NCBI GenBank assembly: GCA_023134715.1
Contig: JAGLUP010000002.1
Coordinates: 15,906 to 79,905 of the forward strand
Length of the DNA: 64,000 bases
Reading direction: 5' to 3'
From: Candidatus Parcubacteria bacterium
GTDB lineage: Bacteria > Patescibacteriota > Minisyncoccia > Minisyncoccales > JAGLUP01
Every line of letters starts with the position of its first letter. The stretch's first letter is position 1. Of the stretch, positions 22,531 through 44,069 are shown in pieces. The notes below the pieces were generated by a model. It searched no databases, was not told where the DNA came from, and saw only the letters and a program-made list of their open reading frames with translations. The translations under genes were made by a program, and so were the position numbers.

Positions 22531-23097
22531 ATGAAAGAAATAGAGATATTAGTTCAAGTTTTAGAAAAAATAGATACAGCGAAGAAAAAATTAAACGATT
22601 CGCTCAAATATATTGGCGATAAAGATATTATAGATTTTTATTTCTATAATCCTTTAAAGTATAAAATAGATCCAAGCGATGAGCATCCTCTTAAAGAGAT
22701 AATCAGAGTTAGAAAAGCGAACAATAAGTCCTTTATCACATATAAAAAGAACAAGTTTGATGAAAAAGGAAATTGGCTTTACTCTGACGAAGAAGAAGTT
22801 GAAGTAAGTAATTCTCAATCAGCAATTAAAATAATAAAAAAATTAGGATTTAAAGCCCTAATAGAAGTGAAAAACACTAAATCAGTATTTGTAAATGATA
22901 AATATGAAGTTGTTTTAGAAAAAGTAAAAGATTTAGGTTATTTCCTGGAAGTTGAAATCAGAAATCCAACTAAGGATATAAATGTTGAAAGCGCTAAAAA
23001 CGGCATTCGGCAATTTATAAAAGATTTAAACATTAAGGTCGGGAAAGAATTAAACATTGGCAAGCCTGAGCTAATGTTAAAGAAAAAATTAATTTGA
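22531..23097 (+). CDS. CYTH-like domain protein (triphosphate tunnel metalloenzyme / class IV adenylate cyclase family)
   Basis: N-terminal EIEIL (ExExK-like) and C-terminal GYFLEVEI. Size is typical for the family. Confidence 0.5.
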   Translation: MKEIEILVQVLEKIDTAKKKLNDSLKYIGDKDIIDFYFYNPLKYKIDPSDEHPLKEIIRVRKANNKSFITYKKNKFDEKGNWLYSDEEEVEVSNSQSAIKIIKKLGFKALIEVKNTKSVFVNDKYEVVLEKVKDLGYFLEVEIRNPTKDINVESAKNGIRQFIKDLNIKVGKELNIGKPELMLKKKLI

Positions 23098-23157
23098 TTG
23101 ACAATTTGAGAAAAGTTTGAAAAAATAGGCTAACAAGGAAAATTATTAGAATTCTAA
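23098..23157 (+). promoter_or_regulatory. Promoter-like block upstream of trpS (short copy of the 24398/25835 repeat)
   Basis: TTGACAATTTGAGAAAAGTTTGAAAAAATAGG..ATTATTAGAATTCTA aligns with the first ~60 nt of the two longer copies. Confidence 0.4.
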
Positions 23158-23167
23158 AAAAATAAAT

Positions 23168-24196
23168 ATGAATTTAAAACAAAAAATTCTTACGGGAATG
23201 CGTCCAACGGGTCTCTTGCATTTAGGACATTATGTTGGAGCTTTAGAAAATTGGATTAAACTACAAGACGACTATGAATGTTATTTTCTTATTTCCGACT
23301 ATCAAGCACTCGGTGATCATGTAAATGAGATAGAAAAAATTAGAAAATCAGTAATTGATATGGTTCTAGATTGGATGTCGGTAGGACTTGATCCAAAAAA
23401 ATCAGTATTTATTGTGCAAAGTTATGTTCCAGAACATGCTGAATTGGCTTTATTATTAAGTATGATTATTCCTATTGCATATATTGAACGAAATCCAACA
23501 TTAAAAACAGAAATGAATCAATTAAGCAAAAAAGATATTTCACTAGGATTTTTTAATTACCCAGCAAGCCAAGTGGCAGATATCCTACTTCCAAAAGCTC
23601 ATCTTGTTCCTGTCGGCGAAGACCAAATTCCACACATTGAACTTACGCGACAAATAGCAAGAAAATTTAATAAATTATACAAAGACATTTTTCCTATACC
23701 AGAGCCTCTTGTTGGACGTATTTCTAGATTAGTTGGCACTGATGGAAAAGCTAAAATGAGTAAAAGTTTGGGAAACTGTATTTATCTATCTGATTCAAAG
23801 GAAACCGTTGAAAAAAAAGTAATGAAAATGTATACAGACCCAAAACGAATTCATGCCACGAGTCCAGGACATGTAAAAAATAATCCCGTTTTCATTTATC
23901 TTGATGCGTTTCATAAAGATATAAAACAACTTGAAGAGCTTAAAATAAAATATAAAAAAGGAACAATTGGCGATGTAGAAGTAAAAAAAATCCTTATAAA
24001 AACATTAAATGATTTTCTTGACCCAATTCGCAAACGAAGAATTTATTATAATGCTCACCCAGAAAAAGTTAAAGAAGCTATTGTCCAAGGAACATTACGA
24101 GCGAAAGATATAGCAAGAGAGACAATGAAAGAAGTAAGAAAAGCTATGAAAATTACTAATTACGAAGATGTTGTTATAAGAGCAACCAACCTGTAG
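23168..24196 (+). CDS. trpS: Tryptophan--tRNA ligase
   Basis: HIGH-type motif TGLLHLGHYVG and a KMSKS motif. Length is 342 aa. Confidence 0.9.
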   Translation: MNLKQKILTGMRPTGLLHLGHYVGALENWIKLQDDYECYFLISDYQALGDHVNEIEKIRKSVIDMVLDWMSVGLDPKKSVFIVQSYVPEHAELALLLSMIIPIAYIERNPTLKTEMNQLSKKDISLGFFNYPASQVADILLPKAHLVPVGEDQIPHIELTRQIARKFNKLYKDIFPIPEPLVGRISRLVGTDGKAKMSKSLGNCIYLSDSKETVEKKVMKMYTDPKRIHATSPGHVKNNPVFIYLDAFHKDIKQLEELKIKYKKGTIGDVEVKKILIKTLNDFLDPIRKRRIYYNAHPEKVKEAIVQGTLRAKDIARETMKEVRKAMKITNYEDVVIRATNL

Positions 24197-24397
24197 CATA
24201 AACCCTGTCTCGGCAGGCAACGGAATTAGAAAGGAATCGCAATCCAAGTAAAATTCCGGGTGGGATTTTGTTCATTATAAATTTGATAATTTATATAAGC
24301 GACCCAGCAAGTCCTAAAACTGCTCTTTTTTGTTTGAAAAAATTTGCATTCGTTCCTGTAGCTAAGCTACAGGAAAAGCTACAGGAAAATATATTTG

Positions 24398-24558
24398 TTG
24401 ACAATTTGGGGAAAGTTTGGGAAAATAGGGGAATGAGGAAGATTATTAGAATTCTAACTAAAATGGAGGAAAATTTTAATTTAAAGCTTTAACAGAAAAG
24501 CCCAACATTTGATGTTGGGCTTTTAATTAAAGGACGGTTCGTTTGTTTAAGAACTATT
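24398..24558 (+). repeat. ~160-bp promoter-leader-terminator unit, copy b (upstream of the GGR gene)
   Basis: Near-identical to 25835-25997. It contains TTGACA, a conserved ~75-nt segment and the terminator AAAAGCCCAAC-atttgat-GTTGGGCTTTT. Confidence 0.8.
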
Positions 24559-24604
24559 TTTGTAGTAAAATCAGAATAAAAAATTAGTTAAAGCAAAACA
24601 AACT

Positions 24605-25795: not shown

Positions 25796-25834
25796 AAAAA
25801 ATTAAATATTCATCATTCACTATAAAGAATTTCA

Positions 25835-25997
25835 TTGACAATAGAGCAAAAGTTTGGGAAAATAGGGGAATGAGGAAGATTATTAGAATTCTAACTAAAA
25901 TGGAGGAAAATTTTAATTTAAAGCTTTAAACAGAAAAGCCCAACATTTGATGTTGGGCTTTTAATTAAAGGACGGTCCGTTTGTTTAAGAACTATTT
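25835..25997 (+). repeat. ~160-bp promoter-leader-terminator unit, copy c (upstream of the terpene-synthase-like gene)
   Basis: Near-identical to 24398-24558. Confidence 0.8.
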
Positions 25998-27127: not shown

Positions 27128-28696
27128 ATGGATTTGGCCTTGATTCACAAGATAATTGTTATGTTAATTGACGCTATTGGATTATGGCTGGCTTTTTGGG
27201 TTTTATCTGCTAATCGGAAATCGAAAGTTAATCAGATGTTCTTTCTGATGACAATTTTTATTCTTTTATGGATAACCCTTTGTTATTTTAGCGGAACACT
27301 AATACATAATTTAGAACTATCTTTATTCTTGGGTAGATTAGCGTATGGCACAACTATTCTTTTTTTTATCCCATTTTATTTTTTCTCTCTTAGTTTTGTG
27401 GAAAAAAAGGAAAGATTTTTACTTCTAAAAATACTTATTCCAATTAGCAGTTTAATACTTTTTTTATTTTCTGTTTTTACAGATTTTATGGCTGTGTATA
27501 TGACACCTACAAAATTTGGTGTTGTGCCCATATTAGGGCAAGGAAAATTTATTTATTTTGGATTTGTATTGTTTGTAACCTTATTAGTTATAATCCGACT
27601 TTTTAAAAAATACTTTAAATCATTAAGGAAAGAAAAACTTAAGGTTCAATATTTTTTAGTTGGTCTTTTTATTTTTATAGTGGCAAACCTTATTTTTAAT
27701 GTCATTTTACCTTTTGGGCAAAAAATTCCTCAATATTATTATATTGGCAACTATTCAGTTGTTTTTTTGCTTGGGTTTACGGCTTATGCGATTGTAAAGC
27801 AAGAATTATTTGAAATAAAGGTTGTTTTAACTTCACTTCTTGTGGGATTGATTGCTATTTTACTTTTGATAAATACTTTGGTTTCTCAAACAACTTTTGA
27901 ATATGCATGGAAAGGAGCCATTTTTGTTTTATTCTTGGTTTTTGGCCAAATGCTTATTAAAAACATAACAGGAGAAGTAAAAAGAAGAGAAGAAGTAGAA
28001 AAAATATCTAATGCAAAATCAGAGTTTATTTCTATTGCTTCGCATCAGTTAAGAGCGCCTCTAACTGCTGTAAAAGGATATATTTCAATGCTGGTTGAGG
28101 GAACTTATGGAAACTTACCCAGAAAAGCTCTTATGCCTATGAAAAACGTTTATACGTCAAATGAAAGGTTGCTAAATCTTGTTGAAAATCTTTTAAATGT
28201 CTCTCGAATTGAATCAGGCAGGATAGAGATGAATTATAAAGAAACCTCTTTGGAAGATTTAATTTCTTCTGTTATTAAAGAAATGAAAATTAACGCGCGA
28301 GAAAAAAAGATTTATTTAAAATTTGAAAAATCGAAAAAACCTTTGCCTAAAATTAATATTGACCCGCAGAAAATAAGGCAAGTTGTTTTGAATTTGATTG
28401 ACAATGCTATCCACTACACAAAAAAAGGAGGAATAATAATAAAAATTAAGATACAAGATAGTAAATACCAGATACAAATAATAGATACAGGGGAGGGGAT
28501 GACTAAGGAGGAATTGGGAAAGGTTTTTCAAAGCTTTTCCCGCGGCACGGCAGGCAACCGATTCTGGACTGAAGGAGCAGGTTTGGGCTTATACATTGCT
28601 CGCAAGTTCGTGGAAATGCACAAGGGCAAAATCTGGGCAGAGTCAAAGGGCAGGTCCAAAGGCAGCCAGTTTTATGTGGAGCTGCCAGCGAAATAA
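27128..28696 (+). CDS. Sensor histidine kinase with polytopic N-terminal membrane domain
   Basis: HisKA H-box SIASHQLRAPLT. HATPase motifs are NLIDNAIHYT, DTGEGM and GAGLGLYIA. Confidence 0.9.
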   Translation: MDLALIHKIIVMLIDAIGLWLAFWVLSANRKSKVNQMFFLMTIFILLWITLCYFSGTLIHNLELSLFLGRLAYGTTILFFIPFYFFSLSFVEKKERFLLLKILIPISSLILFLFSVFTDFMAVYMTPTKFGVVPILGQGKFIYFGFVLFVTLLVIIRLFKKYFKSLRKEKLKVQYFLVGLFIFIVANLIFNVILPFGQKIPQYYYIGNYSVVFLLGFTAYAIVKQELFEIKVVLTSLLVGLIAILLLINTLVSQTTFEYAWKGAIFVLFLVFGQMLIKNITGEVKRREEVEKISNAKSEFISIASHQLRAPLTAVKGYISMLVEGTYGNLPRKALMPMKNVYTSNERLLNLVENLLNVSRIESGRIEMNYKETSLEDLISSVIKEMKINAREKKIYLKFEKSKKPLPKINIDPQKIRQVVLNLIDNAIHYTKKGGIIIKIKIQDSKYQIQIIDTGEGMTKEELGKVFQSFSRGTAGNRFWTEGAGLGLYIARKFVEMHKGKIWAESKGRSKGSQFYVELPAK

Positions 28697-28758
28697 TTTA
28701 AAATTTATGATACCGAGCTAATGAAAATATTTCAAAAGTCACAAAAATTATCTATAAT

Positions 28759-30426
28759 ATGTTAAAAAAACAATCAGTTAAGAAAAAAATATTTATTGGA
28801 GCTGCTTGGCCTTACGCCAACGGTTCACTTCACTTAGGGCACGTGGCAGGACTAATTGGTGGAGATATTATAGCGCGTTATTACCGCCTTTGCGCAAATG
28901 ATGTGTTATTTGTGTCTGGAACTGATTGCCATGGTACGCCAATTGTAATTGAAGCGGAGAAAAAGGGAATCCATCCCTCCAAGATTGCTGAAAAATATCA
29001 TAAAGAATTTATAAAAACCCTTGTTAGTGGCCTAAACTTTTCCTATGATTGTTATACAAAAACAACGACTGAAAAACATAAAGAGGTTGTTCAAAATATT
29101 TTCCTTAAATTATATAAAAAAGGTTATATTTACACTAAAACAGAAGAGCTGCCTTTCTGTCCTAAATGCAAGCGCTTTTTGCCAGATCGCTATATTGAAG
29201 GAGAATGTCCTAAATGCCATTATAAAAAAGCAAGAGGAGACCAGTGCGATGAATGTGGAAATTTAATGAACACAAAAGAACTTTTAAGAGCGCGTTGTAA
29301 AAATTGCAATAATACTCCGGAATGGAAATCGTCTGAACATTTTTTTCTTAAACTTTCATCTTTTCAAAATAAGCTTAAAAAACGAGTGGCTAAAAGTAGG
29401 GGATGGCGGTCAAACGCTACAAAATTTACTTTAAATTTATTAAAGGAAGGCCTACCAGACAGAGCAATTACTCGTGATACAGAATGGGGTGTTCCAATTC
29501 CATTAAAGGGATATACTAACAAACGAATATATGTTTGGTTTGAAGCGGTATGCGGATACTTATCAGCTAGTAAAGAATGGTCAGAAAAACAAAATAAAAA
29601 AAATAAATGGGAATCATTTTGGCTAAAAGATAATTCTATTCATTATTATGTTCATGGGAAAGACAATATTCCATTTCATACTATAATTTGGCCTTCGATG
29701 CTTATGGCTTTTGGTGACTTACACTTACCTGATAAAATTATTTCTTCAGAATATCTTACGCTAGAGAAAAAACAGTTTTCAAAGAGTCGTAATTGGGCAG
29801 TTTGGCTGCCAGACTTTTTAAAAGACTTTGATTCTGAAATGCTTAGATATTATCTAATAATCAATGGCCCTGAAAATTCAGATACTGACTTTTCTTGGAA
29901 AGAATTTCAAACCAAAATAAACAATGAACTCGTCGCCAACTTTGGCAATCTTGCGCATAGAACATTTTCCCTGATTAAGAAAAATTTTCCTAATGGCATT
30001 GAGTTTCCAAAAAAATTAGACAATAAAAGCAAACAACTGTTAAAGCAAGCAGAAAAAAGCTTCACTCTTATTGGCGAAGCAATCCAGGAAGCGCGCTTTA
30101 GGCAGGGATTAAAAATAGCCATGGATCTTTCAGATCAGGCCAATCAATATTTAAGCGATGCCGCTCCATGGGAAAGTGTCAAAAATAATCACTCTCAGGC
30201 AGCAAAAGATTTAGCAGTAACAGCTCACATAATTCGCTGTTTGGCTATTTTGCTAAATCCATTTATTCCCCTAACAATCAAAAGAATTAAACAAATCACA
30301 AAAAACGATCCAGAAAAAATTTGGCAGTATCCAACACCTGGATTTGTCCAAATTGCAGACCTAAAGCCTTTATATAAAAAAATAGATGATTCTGAAATAA
30401 AGAATCAAATTGAACGATTAGGTTAA
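28759..30426 (+). CDS. metG: Methionine--tRNA ligase
   Basis: AWPYANGSLHLGH (HIGH), Zn-knuckle CPKC..CDEC and KFSKSRN (KMSKS). Confidence 0.9.
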   Translation: MLKKQSVKKKIFIGAAWPYANGSLHLGHVAGLIGGDIIARYYRLCANDVLFVSGTDCHGTPIVIEAEKKGIHPSKIAEKYHKEFIKTLVSGLNFSYDCYTKTTTEKHKEVVQNIFLKLYKKGYIYTKTEELPFCPKCKRFLPDRYIEGECPKCHYKKARGDQCDECGNLMNTKELLRARCKNCNNTPEWKSSEHFFLKLSSFQNKLKKRVAKSRGWRSNATKFTLNLLKEGLPDRAITRDTEWGVPIPLKGYTNKRIYVWFEAVCGYLSASKEWSEKQNKKNKWESFWLKDNSIHYYVHGKDNIPFHTIIWPSMLMAFGDLHLPDKIISSEYLTLEKKQFSKSRNWAVWLPDFLKDFDSEMLRYYLIINGPENSDTDFSWKEFQTKINNELVANFGNLAHRTFSLIKKNFPNGIEFPKKLDNKSKQLLKQAEKSFTLIGEAIQEARFRQGLKIAMDLSDQANQYLSDAAPWESVKNNHSQAAKDLAVTAHIIRCLAILLNPFIPLTIKRIKQITKNDPEKIWQYPTPGFVQIADLKPLYKKIDDSEIKNQIERLG

Positions 30427-30582
30427 AAGAAAAGCCGAATATTTATAATTCAAGATAATCAAGAAAAATTAGTTAAAATTTTTCAGAATTTTTCCCGGGA
30501 CAGAGTAAATAATAATTTTTAAATAAAAAATTTGACCTTGTGTCCTATAACATCACACAAAAACAAGATGTAAGCCAATAAA

Positions 30583-30626
30583 CCCAAAAGTAGTCAGTTT
30601 TATGTGGAATTGCCGGTGGAATAATT
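30583..30626 (+). repeat. Remnant 1 of the histidine-kinase 3' end
   Basis: CCCAAAAGTAGTCAGTTTTATGTGGAATTGCCGGTGGAATAATT aligns with 28655-28698 of the kinase (..SQFYVELP..stop). Confidence 0.7.
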
Positions 30627-30628
30627 CC

Positions 30629-30657
30629 TTAACTAATTAAGAATATTGTTGTATAAT
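30629..30657 (+). promoter_or_regulatory. Promoter of the SepRS-SepCysS operon (near-leaderless)
   Basis: TTAACT, 17 nt, TATAAT. The ATG lies only 9 nt after the -10 element. Confidence 0.45.
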
Positions 30658-30666
30658 AAAAATACT

Positions 30667-32205
30667 ATGGATAATGATAAAATAAAAAATAAAGGGTTGT
30701 GGGATATTAAAAAATTAAAAGAGAAAAAGGAAAAAGATTTTGAAAAAACATGGCTTGAAACAGCCAAGCTTTTACCGAGAAATACCCATCTTAAATTAAA
30801 AAACAAAGGAACGCCGAATTTAGTCGCAGAGATGATAGAAAAATCAAGAAAAATTCTTTTAAATGCTGGCTTTAGAGAAGTGATAAATAAAACTATTTTA
30901 CCTGAAGATGATATTTATAAACAATATGGCCCGGAGAGTCCTTTAATTTTAGATAGAACCTATTATCTCGCGACCCCATCTAAGCCAGATATAGGATTAA
31001 GCAAAAAGAGAATTGAGGAAATAAGCAAAATAATAGGAAGTTTTACTTCGGAAAAATTGCAAAACATATTGCGCGACTATAAAAAGGGAATAATAGAGGG
31101 AGACGATTTAATTGAAGAAATAGTTAATAAACTTAAGATAAAGCCAGAACAGGCTACGGCAATAATTGAAAAGGTTTTTCCAGAATTTAAAAAAAATAGA
31201 CCGGTTTGTTCTAATCTAACATTAAGGGGGCATATGACAGCTACTTGGTATCATACTCTTGCCGCCCTTCAAGACAAAGAGGAATTTCCAATAGCGTTAT
31301 TTTCTGTCGGGCCTCGCTATAGAAACGAACAAAGAGAGGATTTCAGCCATCTTTGCGTCCATAATTCCGCTTCTATGGTAATTATGGATCCTGAAATAAG
31401 CATTGAAGCAGGCAGAAAAATTACAAAAGAAATTTTAAAAGAATACGGCTTTAAGGACGCAAAATTTGAGAAAAAAAAGGCAACTGCAAAATATTACGCG
31501 CCGGAACAAGAAGAAGAAGTATTTGTGAAAAAATTCGGAAAGTGGATTGAAATAGCAAATATAGGAATGTATTCTCCAATCTCTTTGGCAAATTTTAAAA
31601 TTCGCTATCCTGTGTTTAATGCTGGCTTTGGCATAGAAAGATTAGCTATGGTGTTAGAAAATATCAAAGATATAAGAAAACTTGTTTATCCTCAATTTTA
31701 TGAAAAAGAATATACTGATGAAGAAATAGCTGAATCCATCAGTTATATAAAAGAGCCCTCTACTTTAAAGTGTAAAAAAATAGCCGAGTCAATAGAAAAA
31801 ACAGCAAGGAAAGAAAAAGATGAAGCATCTCCTTGCGAAATTGAAGCATATAAAGATAATTCAATTAAAGTGGAAATTATAGAAAAGGAAGAAAATAAAA
31901 AATTAATTGGTCCCGCCGGACTAAATTATATTTGCGTAAAAGATGAAAATATATATCCAGATATTTCTCAATCTGGAATTCCGACAGGGAAATCTTATAT
32001 TTCAGGCATAGCTAACGCGATTGCATACGAGATTGAAAAAGGAAATATCCCGTTTGCGCTTAAAGTTAAAACAGTAAAGGGGCTTTCTGATATTAATATG
32101 AAAATTCCAAAACATATTAGAGATTATTTAGAGGGAAAAGGAAAAAAAATCGGTTTAAGCGGATATGCGTTTGTGGAAATCCAAGTTAAAAAAAATAAAA
32201 AATGA
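30667..32205 (+). CDS. sepS: O-phosphoseryl-tRNA(Cys) ligase (SepRS)
   Basis: Collinear with archaeal SepRS as I recall it: DFEKTWLET, DIYKQYGPE, LDRTYYLA, PDIGLS, YKKGIIEGDDL, VFPEFK, LTLRGHMT, HNSAS, KYYAPEQEEEV, GFGIERLAMV, VYPQFYE. The start is set to ATG 30667 (the track gives TTG 30646). Confidence 0.85.
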   Translation: MDNDKIKNKGLWDIKKLKEKKEKDFEKTWLETAKLLPRNTHLKLKNKGTPNLVAEMIEKSRKILLNAGFREVINKTILPEDDIYKQYGPESPLILDRTYYLATPSKPDIGLSKKRIEEISKIIGSFTSEKLQNILRDYKKGIIEGDDLIEEIVNKLKIKPEQATAIIEKVFPEFKKNRPVCSNLTLRGHMTATWYHTLAALQDKEEFPIALFSVGPRYRNEQREDFSHLCVHNSASMVIMDPEISIEAGRKITKEILKEYGFKDAKFEKKKATAKYYAPEQEEEVFVKKFGKWIEIANIGMYSPISLANFKIRYPVFNAGFGIERLAMVLENIKDIRKLVYPQFYEKEYTDEEIAESISYIKEPSTLKCKKIAESIEKTARKEKDEASPCEIEAYKDNSIKVEIIEKEENKKLIGPAGLNYICVKDENIYPDISQSGIPTGKSYISGIANAIAYEIEKGNIPFALKVKTVKGLSDINMKIPKHIRDYLEGKGKKIGLSGYAFVEIQVKKNKK

Positions 32206-33302
32206 TATACAAAAGACAAAACAAAAATAAAATAAATATTAATCCTATTCAAGCCGGGGGAATCTTAACACAAGACGCAAAGAAAACGCTTATTGAGTGG
32301 GGAGATGGTTATTCAGTATGTGATATTTGGTATAGCGGAAAAATTGATAAAATAGAAAATCCGCAAATCAGAAAATTTATTGATGAAGCTCTGCCAAAAT
32401 TTCTCGGAAGCGACATTGTAAGAATAATAGGAGGGGCAAGAGAAGGAATATGCGCTATTATGCGCGCTGTGACAAAGCCAGGAGATACTATTTTAATAGA
32501 CGAAAATAAACATTACACAACCGTGCTTGCCGCTGAAAAAAACGACTTAAAGGTTATTGAAGTTCCAAACTCTGGACACCCTCAATATAAAATTGATGTT
32601 AAAGATTATGAAAAATTAATAAAAAAACATAAGCCAGCTTTAATTTTATTAACTTATCCAGACGGAAATTATGGAAATATGCCAGACGCAAAAAAACTTG
32701 GAGAAATCGTTTCAAAATATAATATTCCTTATTTATTAAACGCCGCTTATTCCGCGGGAAGGTTGCCTGTTAGCTTAAGCGCTATTAACGCAGATTTTAT
32801 AGTCACATCCGGACATAAAAGCATGGCTTCTTCCGAGCCCATTGGAATATTGGGTTTTAGAAAAAAATGGAAAGATATTTTATTTAAAAAATCTTCTTTT
32901 TATCCTGATAAAGAAATTGAATTTTTAGGCCATTATCAGAAAGGCGCGCCGATGATGACTTTAATGGCTTCTTTTCCTTATGTTGTAAAACGAGTAAAGA
33001 ATTGGGAAGAACAAGTGGAAAAAGCAAGATGGTTTTCAGCTGAAATGGAAAACCTTGGTTTTAAGCAATTGGGTGAAAAACCGCATAACCATGACTTGCT
33101 TTTTTTTGAAAGCCCTCAGCTTTATAAAATCTCGCAAAAACACAAAGATGGAAGATTTTTTCTTTATAAAGAACTAAAAAAGAATGGAATTTATGGAATA
33201 AAGCCAGGACTAACTAAATATTTTAAACTTTCAACATTTGCCGCGTCAAAACAAGACCTGCAAAAGATATTAAAAACTTTTGAAGAAATATTAAGAAAAT
33301 AA
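32202..33302 (+). CDS. pscS: Sep-tRNA:Cys-tRNA synthase (SepCysS), PLP-dependent
   Basis: ININPIQAGGILT, EWGDGYSVCD and SGHKSM (PLP lysine). Its ATGA overlaps the SepRS stop. Confidence 0.85.
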   Translation: MIYKRQNKNKININPIQAGGILTQDAKKTLIEWGDGYSVCDIWYSGKIDKIENPQIRKFIDEALPKFLGSDIVRIIGGAREGICAIMRAVTKPGDTILIDENKHYTTVLAAEKNDLKVIEVPNSGHPQYKIDVKDYEKLIKKHKPALILLTYPDGNYGNMPDAKKLGEIVSKYNIPYLLNAAYSAGRLPVSLSAINADFIVTSGHKSMASSEPIGILGFRKKWKDILFKKSSFYPDKEIEFLGHYQKGAPMMTLMASFPYVVKRVKNWEEQVEKARWFSAEMENLGFKQLGEKPHNHDLLFFESPQLYKISQKHKDGRFFLYKELKKNGIYGIKPGLTKYFKLSTFAASKQDLQKILKTFEEILRK

Positions 33303-33330
33303 ATTATAAAAATTATGCATCGCAATAATC

Positions 33331-33349
33331 CAGTTTTATGTTGAACTGC
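33331..33349 (+). repeat. Remnant 2 of the histidine-kinase 3' end (short)
   Basis: CAGTTTTATGTTGAACTGC matches the core of the other copies. Confidence 0.5.
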
Positions 33350-33375
33350 AGATTAAGTAGAATTCATTTACAATT

Positions 33376-34263
33376 GTGAAAGCAATAAAATTATATAAAA
33401 AATTAGAAAAAGATTTTATCAAGCCTTCTTTGAGTGATGATTGGGCGAGATATATGGATTTAATATCTGATTTTCTTTCAGAAAATTTTAAAAAACGTTC
33501 AATGGGATTAGTGTGCGACAATACTCAAGATATTAATAAAATTTATACTGCTGTATTTCCTTCAGATGAAATTATGCAATTAATTTTGGATAAAAATGAA
33601 ACCGATATTATGCTTTTTGTCCATCACCCCTCAATTTGGGTTTTAGGTAAAAAGTTCAAAGTTTCTCAGAAAACAAATAGGGCTATAGTTTTTCGAGAAA
33701 TGAATAGAAATTTATTACAACAGTTTTAAAAAAGAAGAATATCTATTTATAATTTACATGTTCCTTTAGATGATTACGGAGAATATTCAACAAGCGTAAC
33801 TCTATCAAAGGCCTTAAAAACGAAACCAGAAAAACCATTTGCTCCTTATTTTGGTGGATTGTGTGGCGTAGTTGCAAAAACCGACATAAAGACAGTAAAA
33901 AATTTAAAAAAAAGAATAGAAAAAGTTGTTAACCACAATGTTAGATTGTATTCTTATGGAACAAACGAAATAAAAAACAAAAAATTTGCAATAATCGCCG
34001 GAGGAGGTAATTCACCAGAGGAAATTTCCAATATCGCGGAGCTTGGAATAAATACCTTTATTACCGGCGTAACTAAATTAGACAAAAATTATTTACCTTC
34101 AGTTAAGGCACACAGTTTATTAAAAAAATTTAGAATAAATCTCATTGGAGCAACACATTACTCAACGGAAAAATTTGCCTGCATTGCTATATGTAAATAT
34201 TTTGAGAGATTAGGGTTGCCATCTGAATTTATAGAGGATAAACCTTTATTAGCAGATATGTAA
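33376..34263 (+). pseudogene. NIF3-family (dinuclear metal centre) gene interrupted by one in-frame TAA at 33727-33729
   Basis: ORFs 33376-33729 and 33859-34263 are in the same frame. Reading through gives ..HHPSIW..EMNRNLLQQF*KRRISIYNLHVPLDDYG.., which is collinear with the E. coli YbgI region HHGYFW..GMKRNRLKTLLANDINLYGWHLPLD. The C-terminus has GGGNS..GINTFITG..GATHYSTE. Confidence 0.7.
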
Positions 34264-34286
34264 GGGTTCTAATAATACACAAGGGT

Positions 34287-34357
34287 AAAATCTTGGCAGA
34301 AAGCGCTGGCAGGTCCAAAGGTAGTCAGTTTTATGTTGAACTGCCGGTGAAATAATT
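34287..34357 (+). repeat. Remnant 3 of the histidine-kinase 3' end (~70 bp)
   Basis: TAAAATCTTGGCAGAAAGCGCTGGCAGGTCCAAAGGTAGTCAGTTTTATGTTGAACTGCCGGTGAAATAA aligns with 28627-28696. Confidence 0.8.
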
Positions 34358-34415
34358 TTTCTTGACTTTTTATTTTTATTATTCTAAAATTAAATTAGAA
34401 TTAAAGCTAAAAAAT

Positions 34416-34622
34416 ATGACTATAAAACTATCTCCAAAAATTAAAAAAACAGTAAGAGAATTTGGTTATTTGGATGAGGAAAAATTTATCCGAGAAGCTA
34501 TAGAAAAAAGATTAATGGAATTAAAAAAATTCCGCTTTTTTGCTATTTCTGAAGAGATAAGAAAAGGTTTAGAAAAGAAAGGAATAAAGCCAGAAGATGT
34601 CTTAAGGGAAATCAAATCTTAA
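34416..34622 (+). CDS. Small antitoxin-like protein (ribbon-helix-helix-like, tentative)
   Basis: 68 aa. It lies 3 nt upstream of a PIN gene and is preceded by a promoter, TTGACT-17-TAAAAT (34363-34391). Confidence 0.5.
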   Translation: MTIKLSPKIKKTVREFGYLDEEKFIREAIEKRLMELKKFRFFAISEEIRKGLEKKGIKPEDVLREIKS

Positions 34623-34625
34623 TCA

Positions 34626-35027
34626 ATGAAGATTAGAATTGTAATTGATGCCAACATTATAATTTCAGCTCTTCTTGGCGGAAAGCCAAGATTTATTTTA
34701 TTTGACACTAAATTCGAGTTTATTACTTCTGACTTTACCCTAAGAGAGGTAGAAAAATATATTCCTTTAATTTCTCGTAAATCTGGCGTTTTGGAGGAAG
34801 AAATCAAAAGGGGAATGTTCTTTTTACCTTTAAAAGTTGTATCTCATGATTATTATAAAGATTATATAAAGCAAGCAGAAGAATTAATTAAAGAAATTGA
34901 TAAAGACGATATTGATATTTTGGCTCTTTACTTAAAAGAAAAAACATTTCTATGGAGCCAAGATAAAGATTTTGAAAAAGTGAAGTTTAAGATAAACCTG
35001 CTCAAAACAGAAGACCTTGTTTTATAA
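34626..35027 (+). CDS. PIN-domain toxin (VapC-like)
   Basis: N-terminus MKIRIVIDANIIISALLGG has the typical PIN acidic first strand, and DKDF occurs later. Confidence 0.8.
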   Translation: MKIRIVIDANIIISALLGGKPRFILFDTKFEFITSDFTLREVEKYIPLISRKSGVLEEEIKRGMFFLPLKVVSHDYYKDYIKQAEELIKEIDKDDIDILALYLKEKTFLWSQDKDFEKVKFKINLLKTEDLVL

Positions 35028-35035
35028 TTCTATTT

Positions 35036-35096
35036 TTATTGCCCGCAAGTGCAACGGCAAAATCCGGTTTTATGTTGAGCTACCAGTGAAATAATT
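35036..35096 (+). repeat. Remnant 4 of the histidine-kinase 3' region (with internal deletions)
   Basis: ATTGCCCGCAAGT..GGCAAAATC..GGTTTTATGTTGAGCTACCAGTGAAATAA aligns in pieces with kinase 28588-28696. Confidence 0.6.
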
Positions 35097-35173
35097 TAAA
35101 AATAATTAAAAATTCGAAGAATATATGTGAAATAGGGGATTGAGCCCCTGTTTTTTTGTTTTTTAGAGGGGGT

Positions 35174-35262
35174 GTGGATAAATTGGGGAAAAATCAAGGG
35201 TTGACGAATGTTTAGGAGTGGGATAAAATATAGATGAAGTGGAAAACTGTGGATAAATATGT
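35174..35262 (+). promoter_or_regulatory. dcw-cluster promoter with repeated MraZ-box-like GTGG(G/A) motifs
   Basis: TTGACG (35201-35206), 17 nt, TAAAAT (35224-35229). GTGGATAAA, GTGGGATAAAA, GTGGAAAAC and GTGGATAAA repeats surround and follow it. Confidence 0.55.
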
Positions 35263-35293
35263 TAATAACTCATCCATATTGTGAATAACTAAT

Positions 35294-35725
35294 ATGTTCA
35301 TAGGCGAATACAAACATACTATTGATGTTAAAAAACGGCTTTCTATTCCGGCTAAATTCCGAAGAGAGCTGGGAAAAGGCGCGGTAATTACCCGCGGCAT
35401 TGATAACTGTCTGGTTATTTATCCTTTAAAAGAATGGAAAGTTATGTCTGATAAATTAGGCAAGCTCCCATCAAGCCAGGTTGAAGCCCGTGGGTTTGCC
35501 AGAATTATGTTAGCCGGAGCCGCGGCAGTCCAGTTTGACAGCTTAGGCAGAATTCTTATTCCTGAATATTTAAAAAAATACGCTTTATTAGCAAAAAATG
35601 TTGTTATTACCGGGCTTTATAATCGATTAGAAATTTGGGACAGTAAAAAATGGGATTCTTATAAAAAGAAAATGGAAAAAGACGTAGGGGATATTGCTGG
35701 CAAATTGGGAGAGCTTGGCATATAA
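35294..35725 (+). CDS. mraZ: Transcriptional regulator MraZ
   Basis: MFIGEYKHTIDVKKRLSIPAKFR, with a duplicated SpoVT/AbrB-like fold. Confidence 0.9.
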   Translation: MFIGEYKHTIDVKKRLSIPAKFRRELGKGAVITRGIDNCLVIYPLKEWKVMSDKLGKLPSSQVEARGFARIMLAGAAAVQFDSLGRILIPEYLKKYALLAKNVVITGLYNRLEIWDSKKWDSYKKKMEKDVGDIAGKLGELGI

Positions 35726-36952: not shown

Positions 36953-38614
36953 ATGAAAAATTGGAGAATTAATCTTATTTTGGCTTTTATATTATTATTT
37001 GGAGCGGTTATTATTGGCCGCTTGTTTTATATCCAAATAGTAGACCACAACTACTACCTTGCTTTAGCCAAAGGACAGCATAAATTCTTAGAAGAAATTA
37101 GCGGCCGAAGAGGCGAAGTTTTTTTTCAAAATAAAACAGAAACATTAGCAATCAATAAAAATCAAGAACTAATTTTCATTTCCCCTAAAGAAATTGAAAA
37201 TCAAGAAGAAACAGCTGATAAGTTGGCTGAAATTCTTGGCTTAGAAAAAGATGTCATTTTAGAAAAAACTAAAAAAGATACTTTTTATGAATTGATAAAA
37301 AATAAGTTAAGCCCGGAAGAAATAGAGGATTTAAAAAAAATAAATTTAACAGGAGTTCATCTGCGACAAGTTCCAGGAAGATATTACACTCAAGGACTTT
37401 TGGCCGCGCATATAATAGGATTTTTGGGCGGAGACAAACAAGGTCAATACGGTATAGAGGGATACCATAATGACTTGCTAAAAGGAGAACAGGGTTTGCG
37501 AGAAAAAGAAAAAAGTCCATGGGGCTTTTCTTTTTTTCAAGAAAATTCTGCTCCAGCGCTAAAAGGAACAGACATTGTCTTGACTATTGATTATAATATC
37601 CAATTTAAAGCGGAAAAATTATTAAAACAAGCTAAAGAAAATTTAGATATTGAATCAGGAACAATTATAGTCATAGAGCCAGATACAGGAAAAATTCTTA
37701 CTATGGCTAATTTCCCGAGCTTTAATCCTAATGAATATTCAAAAATTGAAGATTTTGAAATTTTTCAAAATTCTGCCATTCAAAAACTTTATGAACCAGG
37801 CTCTGTTATGAAACCATTTACTATGGCAGCTGCTTTAAATGAAGGAAAAATAACTCCTGAGACAACTTATATTGATGAAGGAAAATTAACAATTAAAGAC
37901 CGAACTATTTATAATTATAACTTAAGTGTCTGGGGCGAAATGACAATGACAAATGTTTTGGAAAAATCAATCAATACTGGCGCGGTTTTTGCTGAAAGCC
38001 AAGTTGGGCATAATATTTTCTTAGATTATTTGGAAAAATTCGGCTTTTTTAATTCAACTGATATTGATTTACAAGGAGAGAGTTATTCGCAAAATAAAGA
38101 ATTGAAAAAGGGCTATGAAATAAATTTTGCTACTGCTTCTTATGGCCAAGGGATTGAAATGACGCCAATTCAGTTAGCCCGGGCTTTTTCCAGTATTGCC
38201 AACGGAGGAAAAATAATTAAACCTTATATAGTAGAAAATGAAAATCAGCCGCAGATTCTTAATAGGCCAATCTCTAAAAAAACCTCTTCTCAATTAACAG
38301 CTATGCTGGTAAGCGTAACAGAAAACGGTTTTGCTAAAAAAGCCAGGGTTCCCGGCTATTATATTGCCGGCAAAACCGGCACGGCCCAGGTTTCTTGGAG
38401 CGCCTTAGATGTTGACAAAGAGGGATATTCCGACAAAACAATCCAAAGTTTTATTGGATTTGCTCCTGCTTTTGACCCTCAATTTTTAATCTTGGTAAAA
38501 CTGGACAATCCCAAAACAAGAACAGCTGAATATTCAGCTATGCCTTGTTTTCAAAAATTAGCAAAATATATTATTGATTACTGGCAAATCCCCCCAGACC
38601 TTGAAAACTATTGA
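36953..38614 (+). CDS. ftsI: Penicillin-binding protein 2/3 class transpeptidase
   Basis: N-terminal TM helix; SxxK (GSVMKP), SxN (KSINTG) and KTG (GKTGTAQ) motifs. Confidence 0.85.
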   Translation: MKNWRINLILAFILLFGAVIIGRLFYIQIVDHNYYLALAKGQHKFLEEISGRRGEVFFQNKTETLAINKNQELIFISPKEIENQEETADKLAEILGLEKDVILEKTKKDTFYELIKNKLSPEEIEDLKKINLTGVHLRQVPGRYYTQGLLAAHIIGFLGGDKQGQYGIEGYHNDLLKGEQGLREKEKSPWGFSFFQENSAPALKGTDIVLTIDYNIQFKAEKLLKQAKENLDIESGTIIVIEPDTGKILTMANFPSFNPNEYSKIEDFEIFQNSAIQKLYEPGSVMKPFTMAAALNEGKITPETTYIDEGKLTIKDRTIYNYNLSVWGEMTMTNVLEKSINTGAVFAESQVGHNIFLDYLEKFGFFNSTDIDLQGESYSQNKELKKGYEINFATASYGQGIEMTPIQLARAFSSIANGGKIIKPYIVENENQPQILNRPISKKTSSQLTAMLVSVTENGFAKKARVPGYYIAGKTGTAQVSWSALDVDKEGYSDKTIQSFIGFAPAFDPQFLILVKLDNPKTRTAEYSAMPCFQKLAKYIIDYWQIPPDLENY

Positions 38615-38716
38615 CATTTTTGGACATTATGGTATAATTAAAAATGTTAGGAGAGAGAAACTGATTTTAGTATATTGACGAAAAACAGACCTCTCCTTTG
38701 AATGTCTGTTTTTCTT
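38611..38716 (+). promoter_or_regulatory. Promoter plus ~75-nt terminated leader/sRNA, copy 1
   Basis: TTGACA-16-TATAAT with TG extension. Next come GGAGAGAGAAACTGATTTTAGTATATTGACG and the terminator AAACAGAC-ctctcctttgaat-GTCTGTTTTT. Confidence 0.55.
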
Positions 38717-38723
38717 TATTGAT

Positions 38724-38790
38724 AGTTCTTTAAATAACAAAAAACCCTCCTTCGTTAAAAACTATGGAGGGCAAAGAAAGAAAGAGAAAA
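38724..38790 (+). repeat. Cassette 5' module (AGTTCTTTAAATAA, CCCTCC..GGAGGG hairpin, purine tract), copy C1
   Basis: Shared with 45940-46015 and 46643-46719. Confidence 0.75.
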
Positions 38791-38892
38791 AACAGAGAAG
38801 CCATCTCCGTTAAATATTCTCCTGCTGATTGAGGTTCTAAGTTTTGGACCTTAGTCAGCAGGAGGATAATTTATCCCTGCGAGGTGAAAAAG

Positions 38893-39336
38893 ATGAAAGA
38901 AAAAATGAAAACAATGATAGTGGCTATTTTAATAATAGTTACTATAGGAATTGTAGGAGCGGATGTATGGGACGCCTATTATAGCCATGTTGTCTATATT
39001 GAAGAGATAGAAGTCCACATAGCGGAAAACATAAACGTAGAGCTATTAAGTGGCGCAGATTCTGCTTTCGTATATCCTGGCAACATTTTATGCAGAACTT
39101 ACAAAATAACAAACAAAAAAGGGGTAGAACAAAAAATGATGGTTAATTTCGGAATATCAGAAGTGCCATATAGTTTATATACAGTAATTGAAGGAACAAC
39201 TGGACCTAATGAATTCTATGTTCCTCCAGGAGAAAAAATAGTGCAAGCATGCTGGAAACCTTTGGCTAATGCTCCTAGCGGGGATTATACTATGAATATA
39301 GTATTTTCCAGAATGAAGCACACCTTTCGCGGCTAA
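38893..39336 (+). CDS. Small membrane-anchored protein, cassette 1
   Basis: GAGGTGA SD 5 nt upstream of ATG 38893. The product has an N-terminal TM helix and a beta-rich body. Confidence 0.65.
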   Translation: MKEKMKTMIVAILIIVTIGIVGADVWDAYYSHVVYIEEIEVHIAENINVELLSGADSAFVYPGNILCRTYKITNKKGVEQKMMVNFGISEVPYSLYTVIEGTTGPNEFYVPPGEKIVQACWKPLANAPSGDYTMNIVFSRMKHTFRG

Positions 39337-39338
39337 AT

Positions 39339-39404
39339 AGTTTTTTTTCTTTCTTTTTTTCTTTTTTCGAGCTCATAAAACAAGGATTGTGGGTTGGAAA
39401 AAAG
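39339..39404 (+). repeat. Cassette 3' module (polypyrimidine tract plus conserved hairpin), copy a
   Basis: TTTTTTCTTTCTTTTTTT, then CTTTTTTCGAGCTCA-loop-TGGGTTGGAAAAAAG. Confidence 0.8.
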
Positions 39405-39461
39405 TGAATAAAAAATAAACAGCTCTTTTAATTAAATAAAATAAAAAAAGAGGGAAAGAAA

Positions 39462-39632
39462 ATGATTGCAATTGGTAAAACAAATTTAATAGGAGATATA
39501 CCTGGAAATCTTTCTAGGGTAATTTTAGGAAAAGATTTCTGCATGGAAAACGGTGCATTGTTAAAAATAAAAGAGGAGAGAAAGGAAACGTTGAAACGAA
39601 TTAAAAGAAATGTGGAACGTCAACGACCTTAA
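39462..39632 (+). CDS. 56-aa protein, cassette 1b
   Basis: MIAIGKTNLIGDIPGNLSRVILGKDFCMENGALLKIKEERKETLKRIKRNVERQRP. It is absent from the ORF track, and its stop is directly followed by a 3' module copy. Confidence 0.4.
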   Translation: MIAIGKTNLIGDIPGNLSRVILGKDFCMENGALLKIKEERKETLKRIKRNVERQRP

Positions 39633-39689
39633 CTCTTCTCTTTCTTCTTTTTTCGAGCTCATAAAACGGGTTTGTGGGTTGGAAAAAAG
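39633..39689 (+). repeat. Cassette 3' module, copy b
   Basis: CTCTTCTCTTTCTTC, then CTTTTTTCGAGCTCA-taaaacgggttt-GTGGGTTGGAAAAAAG. Confidence 0.8.
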
Positions 39690-39710
39690 TAGATAGAAGT
39701 AAACGAAAAA

Positions 39711-39739
39711 CTACACCGGACGGGTCGGTGTGGTTTTTT
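39711..39739 (+). terminator. Intrinsic terminator
   Basis: ACACCG-gacgggt-CGGTGT followed by GGTTTTTT. Confidence 0.65.
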
Positions 39740-39789
39740 GATTTTGTGATGGTTTTGTGTTAAATTTAATAATGAACTAATAAACACAA

Positions 39790-39861
39790 GGCCCTATCGT
39801 CTAACGGTCAGGACGCTAGATTCTCAATCTAGTAATAGGGGTTCGATTCCCCTTAGGGCTA
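39790..39861 (+). tRNA. tRNA-Glu (anticodon CUC)
   Basis: Cloverleaf: acceptor GGCCCTA/TAGGGCT, anticodon stem CTAGA/TCTAG with loop TTCTCAA, T-arm AGGGG-TTCGATT-CCCCT. Confidence 0.85.
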
Positions 39862-39907
39862 CATAAGAATAAATAAGTTCTTTTAAAATTTAAAAGAGGT
39901 GATAAAA

Positions 39908-40288
39908 ATGAAAACAACAGACGAGATTGGGGCAAAAAAGATAGAAGCAACGCACTTAATTAAGGTAGAACTAAAATTTGATAAAAATAAATGGACAGAA
40001 AAAAGTTTAAAAGAATTTGTAGATAAAAAAATGGAAGGGATAAATCCTCTATGTTTTCCTGATTTAGATTTATTTAGAGTTAAAGATGATACACTGAATG
40101 TCTGCCTATTTATTAGTTTTTTAGCCGGAGTAAAAACAACTGGAAAATTAGCCAAAGAATGGCTTGAGGGACATATAAAAGAACAAGGAATAAAAATAGA
40201 GAAAATAGAAGTAAAGGCAATGATGGATTTTATATCAAAAATACAAGGATTAAATTTCGAGTATAAATCTCGGAATTTTTTTTATTAA
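39908..40288 (+). CDS. Hypothetical protein
   Basis: AAAAGAGGTGATAAAA SD before ATG 39908 (the track gives GTG 39899). No motif recognised. Confidence 0.55.
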   Translation: MKTTDEIGAKKIEATHLIKVELKFDKNKWTEKSLKEFVDKKMEGINPLCFPDLDLFRVKDDTLNVCLFISFLAGVKTTGKLAKEWLEGHIKEQGIKIEKIEVKAMMDFISKIQGLNFEYKSRNFFY

Positions 40289-40347
40289 ATTTTTGGTTTT
40301 TGCAAAAAATAGAGAATAAGGTAGAATAAACCCAGTAGTAAAATAAT

Positions 40348-42954: not shown

Positions 42955-43415
42955 TTCCTGAATTAAAAATTTTCTTAATCGCTATGACTCCATTCGGAGA
43001 ACTAAGAGCGGCGATTCCAATTGCTCTTGAGATTTATAAGCTTCCAATTTGGTCAGCTTATTTTTGGTCGGTTTTAGGAAATTTAGTGCCTGTAATTTTA
43101 ATTTTAAAAGGATTAAAAATAACTTCAGAATACCTTTCTCACAGGATTTATTTTTTTAATAGATTTTTCGCCTGGCTTTTTGAAAGAACCAGAAATAATC
43201 ATGCTCAAAAAGTTAAAAAATGGAAAGAATGGGTATTGATAGCTTTAGTAGCTATTCCATTGCCTTTTACCGGAGCGTGGACTGGAAGTTTAGTTGCTTT
43301 TGTTTTTGGATTTCCTTTTAGAAAAGCGTTTCCTTTAATTGTTCTTGGCGTAATGATTGCTGGAATTATTGTAACTTTTACGACTTTGCTGATAACTAAA
43401 GGATTAACCCCTTGA
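42951..43415 (+). CDS. Small multidrug-export-like membrane protein (COG2426-type)
   Basis: MIPELKIFLIAMTPFGELRAAIPIAL. Its ATGA overlaps the ATPase stop. The product has four hydrophobic helices. Confidence 0.6.
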   Translation: MIPELKIFLIAMTPFGELRAAIPIALEIYKLPIWSAYFWSVLGNLVPVILILKGLKITSEYLSHRIYFFNRFFAWLFERTRNNHAQKVKKWKEWVLIALVAIPLPFTGAWTGSLVAFVFGFPFRKAFPLIVLGVMIAGIIVTFTTLLITKGLTP

Positions 43416-43518
43416 CATTTTTTCGCTTTATGATATAATTATAATTGTTAAGGAGAGAGAAACTGATTTTAGTATATTGACGAAAAACAGACCTCTCCCT
43501 TAGATGTCTGTTTTTCTT
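43412..43518 (+). promoter_or_regulatory. Promoter plus ~75-nt terminated leader/sRNA, copy 2
   Basis: TTGACA-16-TATAAT. The transcribed part is nearly identical to copy 1. Confidence 0.55.
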
Positions 43519-43668
43519 TATTGATAGTTCTTTAAGTAAAAAAAAGAAAGAGAAATGAAATCTTCAGGGCAGTAAATTGATAATTAATAATTAATTATTA
43601 GCTTAATGCTCTGAAGAAATTTGATAATGTCAGGTTTTCTGGTGATGGCAGATATATTGAGGTAAAAA

Positions 43669-44004: not shown

Positions 44005-44007
44005 TAA

Positions 44008-44069
44008 TTTTTTCTTTCTTTTTTTCTTTTTTCGAGCTCATAAAACAATGTTTGTGGGTTGGAAAAAAG
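44008..44069 (+). repeat. Cassette 3' module, copy c
   Basis: Polypyrimidine tract plus CTTTTTTCGAGCTCA-taaaacaatgttt-GTGGGTTGGAAAAAAG. Confidence 0.8.

Follow-up and report, generated by a model that had tools for sequence, protein, structure and literature searches.

We analysed a 64,000-nt stretch of contig JAGLUP010000002.1 from a Candidatus Parcubacteria bacterium (assembly GCA_023134715.1, contig positions 15,906-79,905, forward strand; hereafter the window, whose own numbering is used unless a relative is named), in which an intact sensor histidine kinase gene is followed by four partial copies of its own 3' end. The kinase gene (HK, 27128-28696, + strand) encodes a 522-aa protein with HisKA_7TM, HisKA and HATPase_c domains by Pfam (NCBI protein KAS79_00300), and the copies, here called relics c1 to c4, separate small gene blocks that lie between HK and the mraZ gene. 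The window is AT-rich (G+C ~32%), an Rfam search over it returned two tRNAs and nothing else, and a Logan assembly of run SRR13892601 has 12.7 kb of this region without a single difference. All sequences compared are metagenome assemblies, with several arrangements recurring in independent records. Loci of relatives carry L-numbers (the window is L001), and the scan of 165 loci around kinase relatives combined peptide queries with an nhmmer profile built from kinase 3' ends.

The sequence that recurs downstream is the last ~220 nt of HK (about 28476-28696). When the core CAGTTTTATGTNGANCTGCC was searched with up to three mismatches over the 64-kb window, five occurrences were found, all on the + strand (28667, 30595, 33331, 34326 and 35065), against a chance expectation of 0.03 by shuffling; none of 100 shuffles reached five. 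A repeat search and a MAFFT alignment both recovered the same family. Every copy ends on an in-frame stop homologous to that of the kinase (28696 in HK, 30624 in c1, 33360 in c2, where it is TAG, 34355 in c3 and 35094 in c4), and this right edge is common to all, homology stopping within 3 nt of the stop codon, while the left edge differs from copy to copy. All are co-oriented with the kinase and found solely on its downstream side. A fourfold recurrence of the kinase 3' end, downstream and in one orientation, had been proposed in a preliminary description of this DNA, and it is borne out by these sites and stops.

The four relics differ in length and in state of preservation. Relic c1 (30440-30624, + strand, left edge approximate) comprises ~185 nt of kinase 3' end and is the most decayed; upstream of 30583 the decay is heavy, yet it still reads ..IIQDNQEKLVKIFQNFSRD.. 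where HK has ..IIDTGEGMTKEELGKVFQSFSRG.., and its last 42 nt are near-intact (PKSSQFYVELPVE, then stop). A tblastn alignment that would extend c1 into the metG coding region (to 30280) was judged spurious. Relic c2 (33316-33360, + strand) retains 45 nt (..AIIQFYVELQIK, then TAG). The best-preserved copy is c3 (34272-34355, + strand; 84 nt, IIHKGKILAESAGRSKGSQFYVELPVK, then stop), which without gaps is 88% identical to the HK end over the last 51 nt and 79% over all 84 nt, with 10 of the 18 differences at third codon positions. Relic c4 (35038-35094, + strand) has ~57 nt that represent ~105 nt of HK with two internal deletions (..IARK, then ..GKI, then RFYVELPVK and stop). These extents revise the preliminary ones, in which c1 had been given as ~44 nt and c2 as 19 nt, and they set new limits for c3 and c4. 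A 2-nt deletion and an in-frame 33-nt deletion (joining GKI to QFYVEL) are common to c2 and c4, implying that both were copied from one already-decayed relic. The terminal 30-42 nt are retained in every relic, even where the remainder has decayed (c1) or been deleted (c2, c4). Differences among the copies include C/T, G/T, G/A and block changes, and when the relics were folded as single-stranded DNA (z-scores of -0.88 to +0.81 compared with shuffles) neither a stable fold nor an inverted-repeat core was found.

The blocks between the relics measure 0.7-2.7 kb each, and Pfam confirmed the gene content proposed earlier (metG, SepRS-SepCysS, NIF3 and RHH-PIN). Cassette 1 is metG, encoding a methionyl-tRNA synthetase of 555 aa (28759-30426, + strand), behind a promoter-like TTCAAA-16-TATAAT at 28731-28758. 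Cassette 2 (30667-33302, + strand) holds a SepRS-like gene (30667-32205), with a promoter-like TTAACT-17-TATAAT at 30629-30657 ahead of it, and a SepCysS-like gene (32202-33302); Pfam assigns these to a class-II aminoacyl-tRNA synthetase (aaRS) and a SepSecS-family protein, SepRS and SepCysS being the names used in the preliminary description. Cassette 3 is a NIF3-family gene by Pfam (33376-34263, + strand), probably a pseudogene, which carries one in-frame TAA (33727-33729); homologues 74-83% identical to it are intact at 295 aa. Many NIF3 homologues at 56-61% identity come, by annotation, from DPANN archaea (Nanoarchaeota, Micrarchaeota, Aenigmatarchaeota). Ahead of the closest NIF3 homologue (L216/L217), a c2-like relic could be aligned only weakly and is suggestive at most. 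Cassette 4 (34362-35027, + strand) consists of an RHH antitoxin-like gene (34416-34622) and a PIN_2 toxin-like gene (34626-35027), both by Pfam, behind a promoter-like TTGACT-17-TAAAAT at 34362-34390.

Promoter-like hexamers directly follow the HK end, c1, c2 and c3, and c1-c3 end 2-6 nt before the -35-like hexamer. After c4 there is instead an intrinsic-terminator-like hairpin (35129-35154) and only then the mraZ promoter-like site (35201-35229). The right flank (35129-35725, + strand) continues into mraZ (35294-35725) and then rsmH, ftsL and ftsI, in synteny with a relative (L162). As noted previously, the kinase reading frame is intact and the interval contains no recombinase: none was found by Pfam among the open reading frames (ORFs) between HK and mraZ or among the downstream ORFs of L006, nor among precomputed Pfam calls for L162, L165 and L176.

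Comparison of the kinase downstream region across relatives, proposed in the preliminary description as a check, revealed variable content between conserved flanks. The closest syntenic relative is L162/L163, with a kinase 77% identical in amino acid sequence to that of the window; it has the same order of a terpene synthase gene (TerpS) and HK on the left and mraZ-rsmH-ftsL-ftsI on the right; nucleotide identities to L162 are 78.6% for TerpS, 79.1% for HK and 75.9% for mraZ-ftsI. Between these flanks the window has metG, SepRS-SepCysS, NIF3 and RHH-PIN, whereas L162 has a methyltransferase-S66 peptidase block, RHH-PIN and a 798-aa class-I aaRS. The two intervals have in common just the RHH-PIN pair, its promoter and the first part of the relic behind it, and this segment (cassette 4, L162 13171-13867) is 86.8% identical in nucleotide sequence, above the identity of the flanks. 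The relic after the PIN gene in L162 (13848-13915 plus 14108-14139) is a less-deleted counterpart of c4, and the class-I aaRS gene follows it. A relic equivalent to c3 between the S66 peptidase and RHH genes of L162 was suggested by eye; BLASTP gave nothing and we do not claim it.

Orphan kinase ends occur at several loci of Candidate Phyla Radiation (CPR) type, namely the window, L006/L113, L100, L088, L107 (weak) and L162/L163/L165. Among the CPR-type loci, all nhmmer matches with E <0.5 were downstream of and co-oriented with a kinase; L004 has a weak minus-strand match upstream of its kinase, no better than expected by chance (E 0.72). In the Paceibacterota metagenome-assembled genome of L006/L113, two tandem kinases are followed by small blocks set apart by three relics, with RHH+PIN again in the final block, and L100 has one kinase-end relic that is likewise internally deleted. 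The L162 and L165 contigs align at 97% nucleotide identity from the kinase start codon onward for 11.6 kb (kinase region 10001-11620 in L162 and 2061-3677 in L165), and differ in the first ~200 aa of the kinase (the seven-transmembrane sensor) and in everything upstream (terpene synthase in one, polyprenyl synthase-UbiA in the other). From the sequences, this difference may reflect a recombination breakpoint within the kinase gene or else a chimeric assembly; taken as the former, it makes the kinase gene itself a junction of recombination and counts in favour of the insertion reading given below.

Several of the cassette genes are found next to such kinases elsewhere. The window metG is 81% identical in nucleotide sequence to the metG that follows HK and a GNAT gene in L170, and 80% identical over the first 269 nt to its counterpart in L098, which has the same HK-GNAT-metG order. 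In L166 the orthologous kinase is followed by a toxin-antitoxin pair and then by metG and a LeuRS-like gene, and a kinase precedes metG with an intervening segment in L082 as well. Given that HK followed by metG is common in these relatives, metG, presented in the preliminary description as cargo, need not be exotic. The segment directly after the L166 kinase (11616-12691), ahead of metG, encodes an 89-aa bAvd/23S_rRNA_IVP-family protein and a Gp49/HTH toxin-antitoxin pair, and no kinase relic was detected in it. L168 has a LeuRS-like gene directly after the kinase; it was rejected as an empty site for L165/L162, the aaRS genes being just 34% identical.

A close counterpart of cassette 2 (89.6% nucleotide identity, positions 2531-5211) is in L095, where a GAF-type kinase is followed by an SDH_alpha-family ORF and then by SepRS-SepCysS. 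The catalytic half of that kinase is 81% identical in amino acid sequence to the window kinase, and the whole catalytic half of the window kinase is closer to it than to the syntenic L162 kinase. The last 42 nt of c1 match the end of the GAF-type kinase at 39 of 42 positions; the resident kinase end matches less well (81% by blastn), and c1 runs straight into the SepRS promoter shared with L095. In L095 a kinase end stands near SepRS without metG, but the sensor domain differs from that of the window kinase. The L095 ORF (1058-2474, 449 aa, cysteine-desulfidase/serine-dehydratase-like) sits exactly between the kinase stop and the SepRS promoter, without duplication, and may be functionally linked to the SepRS/SepCysS cysteine route. 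The idea that the resident kinase 3' end is a mosaic imported with metG was rejected, as sliding nucleotide and amino acid identities show no clear breakpoint near the 3' end.

The same architecture was found at other genes. PIN_2 proteins 70-79% identical to that of the window are mostly on short contigs; where flanks are available, the RHH-PIN pair sits between fresh direct duplications of local sequence. In L176 the order is rpsL-rpsG-fusA, RHH-PIN, a 174-nt copy of the fusA end, three pilin-like genes, a 90-nt copy of the fusA end and tuf. The 174-nt copy is 97% identical to the fusA end, with four of five differences at third codon positions, and is called as a 42-aa 'EFG_C' ORF; similarity among all three fusA ends stops exactly after the stop codon. 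The L176 array is thus the kinase array in miniature, on a single-copy housekeeping gene. In L172/L173 the repeats are 116 nt long and consist of a gene end, its terminator and a -35 hexamer, and in L177/L178 three small blocks are set apart by nested 36- and 98-nt intergenic copies and by a 42-nt copy of the S74-peptidase gene's 3' end, that gene lying on the left. No terminal repeats, inverted repeats or conserved termini were found among the RHH-PIN cassettes, which have the coding region alone in common. That one RHH/PIN_2 family lies between duplications of unrelated sequences (fusA end; gene end plus terminator; intergenic) argues that no kinase-specific attachment site is involved. The preliminary reading of tandem accretion at one attachment site accordingly holds for serial insertion at a hot spot, and fails for a site or element specific to the kinase.

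A second site of this kind lies in the window itself (581-3139), where the rplL 3' end and terminator (581-662) are copied at 2037-2118 (82 nt, 94%) after a Fic/DOC gene on the minus strand (750-1814). A 107-nt pair (1824-1930 and 3033-3139, 97%) brackets a minus-strand MNT-HEPN pair (2151-2875) and is interleaved with the rplL-end pair. The MNT gene region also has a 76% nucleotide copy at 11046-11563 (ORF 11094-11450).

We consider that the HK-mraZ interval is a gene-insertion hot spot built serially by what has been termed 'insertion with long target duplication', likeliest through single homologous crossovers, and assign this reading a probability of about 0.6. Gene blocks would have been added one after another beside the kinase gene, so that after each event the new DNA sat between two copies of the last 30-200 nt of that gene. 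The left copy would complete the kinase ORF, and the right copy would become a non-coding relic, still joined to what had been the next gene downstream and to its promoter, and decaying as substitutions and deletions accumulate. No dedicated recombinase, element-specific end or kinase-specific attachment site would be needed, and the ends of fusA and rplL would be used alike. The chemistry would be a single homologous crossover (Campbell-type 'insertion-duplication') between the resident gene end, or an older relic, and a circularised fragment from a related strain that carries the homologous gene end and that strain's own downstream genes.

Such a model would account for several features of the arrays. 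Left edges of relics would vary because they mark fragment ends, and right edges would fall at the stop codon because donor and recipient downstream sequences diverge there. The synonymous-leaning differences of the copies (third codon positions in c3 and in the fusA copy) would be allelic differences, and the occurrence of each block immediately behind such a kinase in another genome would reflect the donor's own gene order. Interleaved repeat pairs, both at the rplL site and in the kinase array (HK end/c3 versus c2/c4), are consistent with an alternative 'allele' of the same hot spot having been added, and the deletions that c2 and c4 have in common agree with NIF3-c3-RHH-PIN having entered an older relic. 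What we infer from these patterns is the succession of events, the donors and the homologous crossover. A strict order with the newest cassette next to the kinase, as first suggested, does not agree with c1 being the most decayed relic or with the derived deletions common to c2 and c4. Saccharibacteria, a Patescibacteria lineage, have been shown to be naturally competent and to carry out homologous recombination (PMC10633639), and gene exchange among Patescibacteria, translation genes included, has been reported (PMC12455944).

Several observations weigh against this reading. Some of the duplications are short (30-45 nt) for RecA-type recombination. The identity of c1 to the kinase end switches sharply from ~50% to 93%, and old relics keep their last 30-40 nt, which together hint at functional constraint or at site-restricted crossovers. 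The better match of c1 to a GAF-type kinase could alternatively mean that a second kinase gene has decayed there, and the deletions shared by c2 and c4 need an extra event, in which NIF3-c3-RHH-PIN inserted into a pre-existing relic. For the window, no strain-level pair of empty and occupied sites and no strain variant was found, the closest kinase being 77% identical. A crude count of 40-300-nt direct repeats gave no enrichment in CPR (2 per 233 kb, compared with 9 per 1065 kb in non-CPR sequence), although the window itself is rich in them. Insertion by homology also leaves the first arrival of a cassette at a new anchor gene unexplained.

The relics might instead be what is left of several full-length kinases, each once ahead of one block and lost by deletion, with the 3' ends surviving since deletions could not enter the next promoter. 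Promoter-like sites directly after the HK end and c1-c3 agree with this, as do the tandem kinase paralogues ahead of relics in L006 and L100, the kinase clusters elsewhere (e.g., L130) and the last 42 nt of c1, whose closest match is the GAF-type kinase that precedes the orthologous SepRS-SepCysS in L095. The possibility that the remnants derive from independent paralogous kinases, raised beforehand as a refutation of accretion, is touched by c1; full-length counterparts in relatives were found for it and not for c2-c4, and c2 and c4 go back to one relic that was copied rather than to two genes. Decay of paralogues would moreover require four extra kinases within 7 kb, whereas in L162 a single kinase goes with the same flanks and with other cassettes, and it is implausible for the fusA and rplL arrays, which are built in the same way around 94-97% identical copies of single-copy housekeeping genes. 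On balance we regard it as unlikely. The retention of the terminal 30-42 nt in every relic, and the way in which homology between copies ends at the stop codon, could also point to site-specific tandem accretion, with the last ~30 nt of the kinase as attachment core and integrase-less cassettes carrying attP inserted by a recombinase acting in trans, as for cis-mobilizable elements (CIMEs), satellite islands or integron cassettes. This would explain the persistence of the relic ends, the sharp boundary inside c1 and the position of the L095 ORF exactly between kinase stop and SepRS promoter, and a large serine recombinase is encoded in the window (54455-55957). However, that gene is 20 kb away and adjoins tRNA-Gln, there is no recombinase in or beside the arrays examined, and the same cassette family is flanked elsewhere by unrelated duplications of 36-174 nt with no conserved cassette termini. 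The relics have neither an inverted-repeat core nor a stable fold. A phage or plasmid attP carrying the kinase end was likewise rejected: no viral contig had a kinase-end-like attP, all 37 core matches in viral contigs lying inside unrelated ORFs encoding QFYV(E/D)(L/F)P, and no relative of the PIN gene was found in viral contigs. We accordingly hold site-specific accretion to be improbable.

A selected cis-element, such as a response-regulator operator or an upstream promoter element overlapping the kinase stop and copied before several promoters, would suit the 2-6 nt spacing between c1-c3 and the -35-like hexamer and the better preservation of the terminal ~30 nt, and another promoter-leader-terminator unit is repeated upstream of three neighbouring genes. 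Yet codon phase, an in-frame stop and longer kinase-coding stretches are retained, all needless for a regulatory motif; c4 is followed by a terminator rather than a promoter; an inserted ORF parts the SepRS promoter from the kinase end in L095; and the duplicated sequence is unrelated at the other anchors. This explanation is very hard to sustain.

The preliminary description had not recognised the array as a known cassette system, but a phenomenon of this kind has already been described under the name 'insertion with long target duplication' (Nobusato et al. 2000, Gene 259:99; Furuta, Abe & Kobayashi 2010, NAR 38:2428, PMC2853133). It was described, as single events, for restriction-modification systems in Helicobacter, Haemophilus, Neisseria and others, mostly naturally competent species, with long duplications of variable length that often span stop codons, without mobility genes and by a mechanism that is unknown (PMC2853133). 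The arrays examined here fall within the repeat and insert limits of Furuta et al. (2010), with direct repeats of ~185, 45, 84 and 57 nt for the kinase end, 174 and 90 nt for the fusA end (L176) and 82 nt for the rplL end, around inserts of <20 kb without transposase, integrase or other mobile element. They resemble that class in their small blocks free of transposase or integrase, in direct repeats of >30 bp that vary in length, are drawn from local target sequence and often span a stop or start codon, in the intact target gene and in 'addiction'-type cargo. They differ in that the cargo comprises toxin-antitoxin modules and aaRS genes, that the events are stacked on a single gene end, with four relics for the kinase and two for fusA, and that the host belongs to the CPR. 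We place the kinase array in a described class, to which it adds a new host, new cargo and the stacking of events.

Other systems share part of this organisation. Tandem accretion at attachment sites in gene 3' ends is familiar from ICESt1 and CIMEs at fda, e14 and phage 21 at icd, tRNA-anchored islands and tycheposons, where co-oriented partial 3'-end copies likewise delimit successive inserts and the incoming copy restores the target gene. Those systems depend on integrases of the tyrosine or serine type, with a defined core and a single specific target; the arrays here lack an integrase, vary in duplicated length and place the same cassette family at unrelated anchors. Integron arrays and clusters of attC sites lacking integron integrases (CALINs) are similar in their co-oriented units of gene(s) plus repeat, often toxin-antitoxin genes, and in forming arrays without mobility genes. 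Integron attC sites are imperfect palindromes that fold, with R'' and R' boxes, and their cassettes are mostly promoterless, whereas the relics are coding-derived and unfolded and the cassettes have promoter-like sites of their own; as neither IntI nor attI was found either, attC was rejected as an identity for the relics. Laboratory insertion-duplication of the Campbell type, in which circular DNA with one homologous fragment enters transformable bacteria, has no site specificity and leaves an intact gene, the insert and a truncated copy of the targeting fragment; unlike the arrays here it is a laboratory procedure, and a natural role in gene gain and the circularisation of fragments are not established. 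Diversity-generating retroelements have a nearby reverse transcriptase and mismatches confined to adenines of the template repeat; a template/variable repeat relationship was rejected, the mismatches not being adenine-specific and no reverse transcriptase being among the scanned ORFs. In Xer/dif systems, pdif modules have sites of 28 bp whose XerC and XerD arms flank a 6-bp spacer and which alternate in orientation. These were rejected too, because the only half-site-like sequence, TTATGTTGAAC, is explained by the codons for FYVEL, has no complementary arm and occurs in copies that are all in direct orientation.

The window holds other repeats and rearrangements. A unit of a TTGACA promoter, a 19-codon leader ORF (MRKIIRILTKMEENFNLKL) and a terminator hairpin recurs at 23085-23178, 24386-24559 and 25828-25997, upstream of a Trp/Tyr-type aaRS gene (partial copy), a geranylgeranyl-reductase-like gene and a terpene-synthase-like gene, with two copies 95.7% identical; further copies are present in L162 (5790-5905 and 8747-8917), and the unit could be an attenuator-type leader or another target duplication. 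Intergenic direct repeats are dense at 38600-47050. There, 38611-38743 matches 43412-43545 (90%), each starting from the stop codon of a gene (ftsI and Sm_multidrug_ex), 43539-43675 matches 45999-46139, 45940-46015 matches 46643-46718 (100%), and a 60-nt repeat family occurs at 39343, 39636, 44008, 46554 and 46978; these may be further insertions of the same kind or a repeat-element family. The large serine recombinase gene (54455-55957, minus strand; Resolvase, Recombinase and Zn_ribbon_recom domains), the sole recombinase found in the window, abuts tRNA-Gln (54396-54467), and an inverted copy (56011-56181, 93%) of the 163 nt at its 3' end (54461-54623) lies immediately upstream of its start, so the region 54396-56181 could be an integrated element or an invertible segment. 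Next to it, inverted repeats of 254 nt (56163-56416 and 63718-63971, 95%) and a 55-nt inverted pair (61637-61691 and 63674-63729) bound a 7.8-kb segment that holds a D12-class adenine methyltransferase gene (57636-58838). Finally, adjacent paralogues at 49215-50495 and 50631-51896, 76.5% identical in nucleotide sequence over 1.1 kb (49284-51772), form a tandem gene duplication.

These CPR contigs provide several fresh, stacked cases of insertion with long target duplication with precise junctions, and they catch one RHH-PIN_2 family at several anchors. This makes hypotheses testable, for example a single crossover of circularised DNA versus a trans-acting recombinase, and with Saccharibacteria now transformable (PMC10633639) experiments are feasible. 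For annotators, short ORFs with housekeeping-domain matches, such as the 42-aa 'EFG_C' ORF of L176, are to be expected as insertion scars. More tentatively, and with some doubt on our part, CPR bacteria might possess a general form of cassette accretion, recombinase-free or trans-acting, in which the 3' ends of resident genes (kinase, fusA, rplL) serve as reusable docking sites, the last 30-40 nt of relics are kept for re-use, and toxin-antitoxin and aaRS genes (metG, SepRS/SepCysS) are stacked and exchanged between lineages, amounting to an integron-like capture that works from ordinary coding sequence. The arrays bear on how ultra-small, recombinase-poor genomes gain genes, and it may be by such insertions that lineages exchange translation genes, metG and SepRS/SepCysS among them.

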